The notes beneath the pieces are model-generated. The model made no database searches. It was given only the letters and a program-made list of their open reading frames with translations, and had not been told where the DNA came from. Positions 47,426 to 48,079 of a DNA stretch of 64,000 nucleotides are shown here, piece after piece. How positions within the stretch are numbered: position 1 is the first letter of the stretch; each line of letters opens with the position of its first letter. The translations under genes were made by a program, and so were the position numbers. The stretch is taken from the sequence record PQ529420. The stretch is one strand, 5' to 3'. The stretch is from Escherichia phage Eryne.

Positions 47426-48079
47426 TTAATTATCAGAGGATACTTTATCAAGTTTTTCAGAGACTGTCAATACTTTTTCTTGTGATTCTTTCATTTCTGC
47501 TAAAATACTTTCAGCTTCATCACTATCAGGATCACCAGTCAACAGCATACTAATTAGTTGCTCCTTGCTGAAGTTCAGAATATCTTCCGCTGTTAGCTCC
47601 AGTTGTTCTTCGATCTCTTCAACAAAAGTTTCACCCCCTGAAAAAGCATCTCGTAGTTTTGCAACTTCCATTGCTTCTTCTGGGGTTGCCCCAGTGTCTA
47701 AAGCTGCTAAAGCAAAATCTGCCCCACTACCAACAGCATAGTAATCTTCAGTTAAAGGATATGCTCGCGTTGGATTATTACCCTCGTGCATATAAATTTT
47801 ACCGTCTGGGTGAACAACCAATGCCACAAACTCTTCATCTTCTTTATCAGGATCGGACTGGATCACCAAACCTGGGATTGTCTCTTGTGCTGCTTGGCAT
47901 TGTAAGTTTTGTTCGAACCAAGAAAAGAAAGTCAGGATAGAAGACAGACGTCCTGCACCACCAACAAGGTAGTCCCCAATTTTACGCACTTTCTTGAAAT
48001 TTAAAGTGTCTACACGACTACCTACTGTTACTTTACCGTCAGACAGAATTTTGTTACGTGTTGCAATAATTGTTGTCAT
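47426..48079 (-). CDS. HslV-like N-terminal-nucleophile protease with acidic C-terminal tail
   Basis: MTTIIATRN (Thr right after Met), KKVRKIGDYLVGGAG, AVGSGADFALAAL resemble HslV/ClpQ; about 70 extra acidic residues. Confidence 0.55.
   Translation of the reverse strand: MTTIIATRNKILSDGKVTVGSRVDTLNFKKVRKIGDYLVGGAGRLSSILTFFSWFEQNLQCQAAQETIPGLVIQSDPDKEDEEFVALVVHPDGKIYMHEGNNPTRAYPLTEDYYAVGSGADFALAALDTGATPEEAMEVAKLRDAFSGGETFVEEIEEQLELTAEDILNFSKEQLISMLLTGDPDSDEAESILAEMKESQEKVLTVSEKLDKVSSDN

Follow-up and report, generated by a model that had tools for sequence, protein, structure and literature searches.

The gene analyzed here lies in the window, that is, the whole 64,000-nucleotide stretch of Escherichia phage Eryne (sequence record PQ529420). 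We consider that it encodes a catalytically competent N-terminal-threonine peptidase, which belongs to a phage-specific branch of the proteasome/HslV family, the PPH/RPC group, and most likely works without a dedicated ATPase, a reading to which we assign a probability of roughly 60%. The protein is a genuine, HslV-like Ntn hydrolase of the proteasome family. The feature is not new, since the protein is already annotated in related phages and the family was described in 2021.

The searches that place the protein in this family gave the following results: (i) the Pfam Proteasome model PF00227 matched with 24.5 bits against a gathering score of 22.4 (E 2.4e-5), (ii) PHROG 1040, 'peptidase HslV family', matched with E 6.3e-61, residues 1-212 corresponding to profile positions 14-214, and (iii) the top 13 matches of a phmmer search of the PDB were all HslV, the best being 1m4y (E 1e-7). 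The sequence-only reading had proposed an HslV/ClpQ-like threonine peptidase on the grounds of the N-terminus MTTIIATRN and of two motifs, KKVRKIGDYLVGGAG and AVGSGADFALAAL; the N-terminus is present in the 217-aa ORF, the motifs are found at residues 29-43 and 115-127, and the identity is borne out by the PF00227, PHROG 1040 and PDB matches and by the predicted fold. The NCBIfam HslV equivalog models scored 30.5 bits for TIGR03692 (cut-off 157.75) and 32.9 bits for NF003964 (cut-off 137), and because of this distance to the cut-offs we classify the protein, on its sequence, as a distant homologue of HslV and not as an HslV orthologue. Full-length copies that are 98-99.5% identical to the peptidase, such as bas61_0205 of the BASEL phage EmilieFrey, are annotated in GenBank, where the labels used in related phages are 'peptidase HslV family', 'HslV family peptidase', 'putative 20S proteasome' and 'putative proteasome component'. 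Neither the peptidase nor either neighboring ORF matched a PADLOC defence or anti-defence model at E <= 0.1, a result that speaks neither for nor against an attack on defence proteins, which the sequence-only reading had raised as a possibility.

The source genome is that of a phi92-like E. coli myovirus (Justusliebigvirus, Stephanstirmvirinae). Window positions 46000-50000 share 99.8% identity with phage vB_EcoM_ZYD, and at least 80% of this segment is covered by 53 phage records. The peptidase ORF reads from an ATG to a TAA codon (Table 1). Its ATG overlaps the TGA stop of the upstream 164-aa ORF (ATGA), and this overlap suggests that the two genes are translationally coupled. The upstream ORF starts with MTLIEIDRNG, close to the HslV N-terminus, and gave weak colinear BLAST matches; the idea that it might be a degenerate second peptidase subunit, to which these features had led, was rejected. 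A hairpin follows the peptidase gene, but the count of terminator-like sites in the region was not above shuffled expectation, and the same was true of the number of sites found in the promoter scan.

Table 1 Features of the peptidase gene and its surroundings (window coordinates) and residue equivalents of the active site.
Feature	Coordinates	Strand	Basis or remark
Complete CDS of HslV/proteasome-like peptidase, 217 aa + TAA stop	47426..48079	minus	ORF list, sequence, PF00227, PHROG 1040, PDB
Ntn-hydrolase core, residues 1-157	47609..48079	minus	AF2, Foldseek, residue conservation in 150 relatives
Acidic loop IPGLVIQSDPDKEDEE, residues 68-83, at the position of HslV helix H2 and pore loop	47831..47878	minus	AF2 coil, HslV alignment
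Proximal tail, residues 158-184: acidic linker and predicted two-helix motif LELTAEDILNF-SKEQLISMLL	47528..47608	minus	AF2, motif scan
Distal acidic tail, residues 185-217, and stop codon	47426..47527	minus	AF2, conservation
Shine-Dalgarno AGGAGG, 7 nt 5' of the peptidase ATG, within the end of the upstream ORF	48087..48092	minus	sequence
164-aa ORF upstream of the peptidase	48076..48570	minus	all-alpha protein of unknown function, PHROG 14834
20-nt hairpin AAACCCCCTTGAGGGGGTTT, just 3' of the peptidase stop and 5' of the ribosome-binding site of the next ORF	47398..47417	both	terminator-like scan
Thr1 (proteasome/HslV) = T2			HMMER alignment to E. coli HslV
Asp17 = D14			HMMER alignment to E. 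coli HslV
Lys33 = K30			HMMER alignment to E. coli HslV
Oxyanion Gly (Gly47) = G43			HMMER alignment to E. coli HslV
Ser124 (HslV) / Ser129 (proteasome) = S118, within G117-S118-G119			HMMER alignment to E. coli HslV
Asp166, Ser169, Gly170 = D144, S147, G148 (motif S147-G148-G149)			HMMER alignment to E. coli HslV

The alignment to E. coli HslV from which the catalytic equivalents were assigned shows the loss of 4 residues in the first hairpin and of 2 near residue 76. Conservation of Thr1, Lys33 and Ser124 had been singled out by the sequence-only reading as the point to check, and the equivalents T2, K30 and S118 are all present. Together with D14, G43, D144, S147 and G148, they are invariant in 16 close homologues. 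We extended the comparison to 150 distant relatives, the best representatives at 50% identity aligned with MAFFT, and every catalytic position is kept in at least 92% of them. The Thr1 position is occupied by Thr in 139 and by Ser in 4 sequences, the Asp17-equivalent by Asp in 145 and Glu in 2, and the Ser of the GSG motif by Ser in 134 and Thr in 15, while the equivalents of Lys33, the oxyanion Gly and D144 are found in 148, 149 and 140 sequences, respectively; the start MTT is shared by 125 of the 150. This pattern points to strong purifying selection on the active site, which makes a pseudoenzyme very unlikely. The sequence has no propeptide. Methionine aminopeptidase accepts Thr as the second residue, which allows the nucleophile to be freed in the same way as in E. 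coli HslV.

The structure prediction and comparison with HslV that had also been suggested returned an Ntn sandwich. Neither of the two outcomes that the sequence-only reading had named as speaking against it, loss of catalytic triad residues or a prediction without the Ntn-hydrolase fold, was therefore observed. The AF2 model, a monomer built on 16 sequences, reached a mean pLDDT of 79 and a pTM of 0.66, with residues 18-27 below pLDDT 50 and only moderate confidence in the tail. Strands are predicted at residues 3-7, 10-13, 31-34, 37-43, 84-89, 95-99, 106-109, 113-117 and 152-155, and the helices of the core are H1 (45-67) and the H3/H4 pair (120-128 and 133-143). The best Foldseek matches in the PDB were HslV/ClpQ, BPH and archaeal or eukaryotic proteasome beta subunits (probability 1.0, E 1e-9 to 1e-7, TM-score normalized to target of about 0.6), and in BFVD 44 viral structure clusters matched the fold at E <= 1e-3.

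When 1.84 billion cluster representatives were searched with a profile, 7091 relatives were retrieved at E <= 1e-3; 1326 of these reached E <= 1e-10 and 57 reached E <= 1e-30. Homologues were found on 187 phage records. The extended clade occurs in phages of E. coli, Klebsiella, Vibrio, Aeromonas and Shewanella; among 185,579 representative genomes the only copy lay on a single 425-bp contig, so the clade is essentially absent from bacterial genomes. Its nearest outgroup is a large set of PPH-like proteins of 130-160 aa that start with MTT (E 1e-17 to 1e-21) and include genes of Caulobacter, Rhizobium and Rhodobacter phages. Experimental papers on phage HslV-like or PPH proteins were not found in the literature searched, and the mentions in phage genome papers are annotation only.

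The survey of proteasome homologues by Fuchs, Alva and Lupas (Bioinformatics 2021, PMC8665760) provides the closest description of such proteins, and by that published description, on which the assignment is based, the peptidase fits the PPH/RPC group of phage proteasome homologues. Like the members of this group, it is phage-encoded, belongs to group I (HslV/BPH-like), has no propeptide, keeps the catalytic triad and lacks H2. PPH proteins, however, have about 140 residues, whereas the peptidase has 217, with a core of about 157; its length, with an extension of about 60 aa, suits the description of RPC and not the PPH length. The C-terminal domains of RPC match no known structure (PMC8665760), and the same can be said of the extension of the peptidase. 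On the other hand, RPC is tabulated for Proteobacteria only, while the clade of the peptidase is found on phage records and phage-sized contigs. With HslV (ClpQ) the peptidase shares the Met-Thr-Thr start, the Ntn fold, the Thr1/Asp17/Lys33/Gly/Ser set and a similar core length; it differs in that the identity to HslV chains is about 21-29% in the Foldseek structural alignments, H2 is missing, the first hairpin is 4 residues shorter, a tail of about 60 residues is added and no hslU gene is adjacent. The Betaproteobacteria proteasome homologue BPH (5ovs), also of group I, is among the top fold matches and has a long acidic pore loop at the position of the conserved acidic loop of the peptidase, but BPH is a cellular protein that retains H2, assembles into tetradecamers and lacks a C-terminal extension, and its identity to the peptidase is about 19%.

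The acidic loop deserves closer consideration. The sequence-only reading had described the protein as lacking part of the central region; no large stretch is missing, but helix H2 is indeed replaced, by a predicted coil at residues 68-83. These residues align with HslV residues 73-90, include two Pro and one Gly, and are modeled by AF2 as coil. Among 75 close relatives the loop has a mean identity of 72%, against 75-79% for the core, and is thus as conserved as the core itself. PPH and RPC proteins have likewise been reported to be without H2 (Fuchs, Alva and Lupas 2021, PMC8665760).

The loss of H2 bears on the question of an unfoldase. Nowhere in the genome of EmilieFrey, a near-identical relative with full annotation, is a gene of the HslU or Clp type annotated. 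The sole AAA protein, at window positions 9028-10155 and labelled 'FtsH-like protease', consists of an AAA domain only. We rejected it as an unfoldase partner because its distribution among phages does not track that of the peptidase, proteins of this type being found mainly in Enterococcus, Bacillus, Staphylococcus and Lactococcus phages without the peptidase, and because it is Hda/IstB-like, its best matches, all far below threshold, being Hda, IstB and RuvB.

A phage that has no unfoldase gene of its own, as the EmilieFrey annotation indicates, might nevertheless borrow one, and the peptidase could dock on host HslU, replacing or competing with host HslV, and thereby redirect ATP-dependent degradation during infection, in line with the suggestion of the sequence-only reading that host HslU could be co-opted. 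We regard this as rather unlikely, although several observations speak for it. E. coli, Klebsiella, Vibrio, Aeromonas and Shewanella, the hosts of phages with the extended clade, are bacteria that generally encode HslUV, and HslV is by sequence the closest characterized homologue of the peptidase, but the scores of 31-33 bits compare with HslV equivalog cut-offs of 137-158. The binding pocket tells a similarly divided story. In HslV of E. coli and H. influenzae, the pocket for the HslU C-terminus is formed by F54, F57 and Q114, with contacts of A79/K80 in H2 (PMC6429459). In the peptidase, as judged from the monomer model only, these first three positions correspond to L49, F52 and Y107; L49 and F52 are conservative equivalents of the H1 pocket positions F54 and F57, and F52 is invariant in the 16-sequence alignment, which would suit docking on HslU. 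Against it, and again in the monomer model only, the A79/K80 part of the pocket is absent, since H2, from which it derives, is replaced by the predicted non-helical acidic coil. According to Fuchs et al. (PMC8665760), BPH, whose pore loop is long and acidic, seems to work without regulation by an unfoldase. Given that no HslU/Clp gene is annotated in the EmilieFrey genome, that H2 is gone and that the acidic loop is placed as in BPH, we lean towards an ATPase-independent action of the peptidase, an argument from absence and from the missing helix.

Past the last core strand, the protein continues with a tail of about 60 residues (158-217). The sequence-only reading had counted about 70 acidic residues there: the acidic character of the tail was correctly recognized, but its length was overstated and only 16 of its residues are Asp or Glu, which together with 5 Lys and no Arg give a net charge of -11. 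In the proximal part, AF2 predicts helices at 164-169 and 172-181, with a block-mean pLDDT of about 72-80 over residues 161-190. The two-helix motif has a consensus of roughly LTxE..h[ST]KE[EQ]L[LI] and lies about 25 residues past the SGG motif. When the family representatives were divided into long (at least 175 aa) and short (below 175 aa), the pattern [ST][KRQH][EDKQ][EDQ][LIVM][LIVMF] about 25 residues after SGG was present in 43 of 71 long relatives as against 1 of 79 short ones. Mean identity among close relatives is 46% in the proximal tail and falls to 22% in the distal tail, which is fast-evolving and yet retains 25% acidic versus 6% basic residues; for this part an amphipathic helix (188-215) is predicted with low confidence (pLDDT 53-74).

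Pfam gave nothing meaningful for the tail at E <= 10. Relatives carry other content at the same position, for example Cys-rich segments, beta-rich domains or, in many of them, a terminal '..IKYAHNIGxEKLRxRI' motif; two longer relatives with a related terminal motif show weak, sub-threshold similarity to HeH/SAP-type Pfam families (Rho_N and Ish1, E ~1e-3 to 4e-2). Across the family, then, the core is constant and the C-terminal module exchangeable, a pattern to be expected of an outward-facing docking or regulatory appendage.

Taking the core, the loop and the tail together, we propose the following mode of action for the probably ATPase-independent phage peptidase. Host methionine aminopeptidase would remove Met1 and so free Thr1 with no propeptide to be cleaved, as happens in E. 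coli HslV. Thr1 would then act as the nucleophile with D14, K30 and the oxyanion glycine G43, while S118, D144 and S147 would have a supporting role, an activity suggested by the conservation of these residues. The retained H3/H4 helices would probably allow the assembly of HslV-like rings, in which the acidic loop would take the place of H2 at the pore-loop position, an arrangement resembling BPH, which has been reported to function without an unfoldase. The C-terminal extension would project outwards, the two-helix motif first and the variable acidic segment after it, and, because this region is swapped modularly among relatives, it would most likely serve as a docking or regulatory module that chooses partners or substrates. 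The targets would most likely be unfolded or flexible proteins of the host or the phage.

It is tempting to speculate further that the two-helix motif docks, in cis or in trans, into the inter-subunit activation pocket that in HslV receives the HslU C-termini, switching the enzyme on without an ATPase, while the distal end recruits specific host proteins. We consider such an extension of the model improbable; if true, the phage would possess a self-activating mini-proteasome with, for example, nucleoid-associated or defence proteins as targets, and the swapping of C-terminal domains among phage lineages would amount to retargeting.

The assembly into rings that the proposed mechanism includes is itself open to an alternative, in which the protein is a non-ring Ntn enzyme, a monomer or small oligomer, that carries out a narrow reaction such as site-specific cleavage or connectase-like transpeptidation while the tail holds the substrate. 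Connectase is an example of a proteasome homologue that is monomeric and highly specific, several of the newly described homologues may be incompatible with ring formation (Fuchs, Alva and Lupas 2021, PMC8665760), and the peptidase has both lost H2 and gained a C-terminal module. In the AF2 model, however, H1 is retained, as are H3 and H4, the two helices through which ring-ring contacts are made; an insertion between S3 and S4 like that of connectase is lacking, and HslV and BPH are closer than connectase to the peptidase in both sequence and fold, which leaves this alternative with quite a small probability.

Concerning the genomic context, the peptidase gene belongs to a non-structural block on the minus strand that contains the genes for ribonucleotide reductase, thymidylate synthase, dTDP-sugar genes, glutaredoxin, lysozyme and PhoH, followed by the 164-aa ORF, the peptidase, a 142-aa ORF and a Dam-type methylase; the structural genes lie on the opposite strand. 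The order lysozyme-PhoH-(small ORF)-peptidase is found in the phi92-like phages, Klebsiella phage FBKp34, Vibrio phage qdvp001, Aeromonas phage 2L372D and Shewanella phage 1/40. Different gene contexts surround the short genes of the PPH type in phage DSL-LC04 and in phages of Caulobacter, Rhizobium and Rhodobacter. PhoH was considered as a functional partner and rejected: we attribute the synteny to shared ancestry, and PhoH is a helicase-like P-loop protein, not an unfoldase. In phage VEcB, an in-frame fusion joins residues 1-114 of PhoH to residues 63-217 of the peptidase, so that the C-terminus of PhoH, the 164-aa ORF and the N-terminal catalytic part of the peptidase, including Thr1, are lost. 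Because this deletion removes the catalytic N-terminus, the peptidase is probably dispensable for propagation, provided that the fusion, known from a single record, is not an assembly artefact. The peptidase is therefore to be seen as a non-structural accessory function, located among genes of nucleotide metabolism and host takeover. That it could be a structural or morphogenetic protease acting in prohead maturation, or else an inactive scaffold, is highly improbable: many phages need a maturation protease and the gene is conserved across a phage lineage, but the head module of EmilieFrey contains an annotated prohead protease of its own, beside the portal and scaffold genes, the peptidase gene lies outside the structural region, on the other strand, and is disrupted in the VEcB genome record, and an active site so strictly conserved speaks against a pseudoenzyme.

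As a discovery, the gene adds little, given that it is annotated already and its family described. Thousands of representatives of phage proteasome homologues exist, yet no experimental study of any of them turned up in the literature searched. The value of the gene lies elsewhere: the E. coli phages of the phi92/BASEL group are easy to grow and to manipulate, which makes this peptidase a convenient model for the phage proteasome homologues, one that could address which targets they degrade, whether they need host HslU and what role is played by their swappable C-terminal modules.

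Several further features were noted in the window and in related phage genomes; their positions are collected in the table.

Features discussed in the text, with their positions in the window or in the record named
Feature	Sequence	Position	Strand	Remark
436-aa ORF	window	51716-53026	-	in-frame fusion; matches to two dTDP-sugar enzymes
375-aa AAA protein	window	9028-10155	+	'FtsH-like protease' in BASEL phage records
hairpin AAACCCCC-TTGA-GGGGGTTT	window	47398-47417	both	terminator-like on both strands; perfect 8-bp stem, 4-nt loop
similar hairpin	window	49376-49395		separates lysozyme and PhoH genes
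two neighbouring genes	Aeromonas phage 2L372D (locus L003), NC_048769.1	3432-3983 and 4001-4885		both match PHROG 1040
JR328_gp055	Escherichia phage VEcB (locus L006), NC_052663.1	2165-2968		annotated 'peptidase HslV family'

Residues 1-310 of the 436-aa ORF match dTDP-glucose 4,6-dehydratase (329 aa at full length) and the remainder matches residues 161-289 of glucose-1-phosphate thymidylyltransferase, whereas in the near-identical phage EmilieFrey the two enzymes are encoded by separate genes. The junction falls at an 'EEK' common to both partners, which implies, as judged from the sequences, that the fusion arose by a deletion of ~560 bp that took out the N-terminal half of the thymidylyltransferase.

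The protease label on the 375-aa protein looks overstated from its domain content. AAA was the sole domain found (Pfam, E 1e-9); no Pfam match was obtained for the C-terminal region nor for a peptidase domain anywhere in the protein, and its closest NCBIfam similarities, Hda, IstB and RuvB, were all far under cut-off. Homologues are common in phages of Enterococcus, Bacillus, Staphylococcus and Lactococcus. As for the intergenic regions, the hairpin next to the peptidase gene lies past that gene's stop codon and ahead of the ribosome-binding site that serves the following ORF.

Many of the longer relatives of the peptidase share a conserved C-terminal end, 'h..hA..L.IKYAHNIGxEKLRxRI', among them the proteins P0132, P0133, P0141, P0154, P0129 and P0146 and the C-termini of loci L002 and L004; the phi92-type peptidase is without it. 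In the Pfam scan of the relatives, P0141 and P0143 matched Rho_N weakly and below threshold, the former ending in this motif and the latter in a related one; P0141 additionally matched Ish1 and SAP at the same level (E ~1e-3 to 8e-2 across the three families). The terminal motif may constitute a HeH/SAP-like targeting domain.

The upstream copy of the 2L372D pair (183 aa) retains Thr1, Asp and Lys, carries G-C-G in place of G-S-G and 'GYTTS' in place of 'GGAGR', and has an insertion at the position of H2, the HslV helix that an acidic loop replaces in the window peptidase. The pair may form a two-subunit phage particle, or the upstream copy may be an inactive partner.

The true identity of JR328_gp055 is not that given by its label but an in-frame PhoH::peptidase fusion, in which PhoH residues 1-114 are joined to peptidase residues 63-217. 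Lost in the fusion are the C-terminus of PhoH and the 164-aa ORF, along with the peptidase's catalytic Thr1. Provided that the assembly is correct, VEcB is a natural peptidase knockout.
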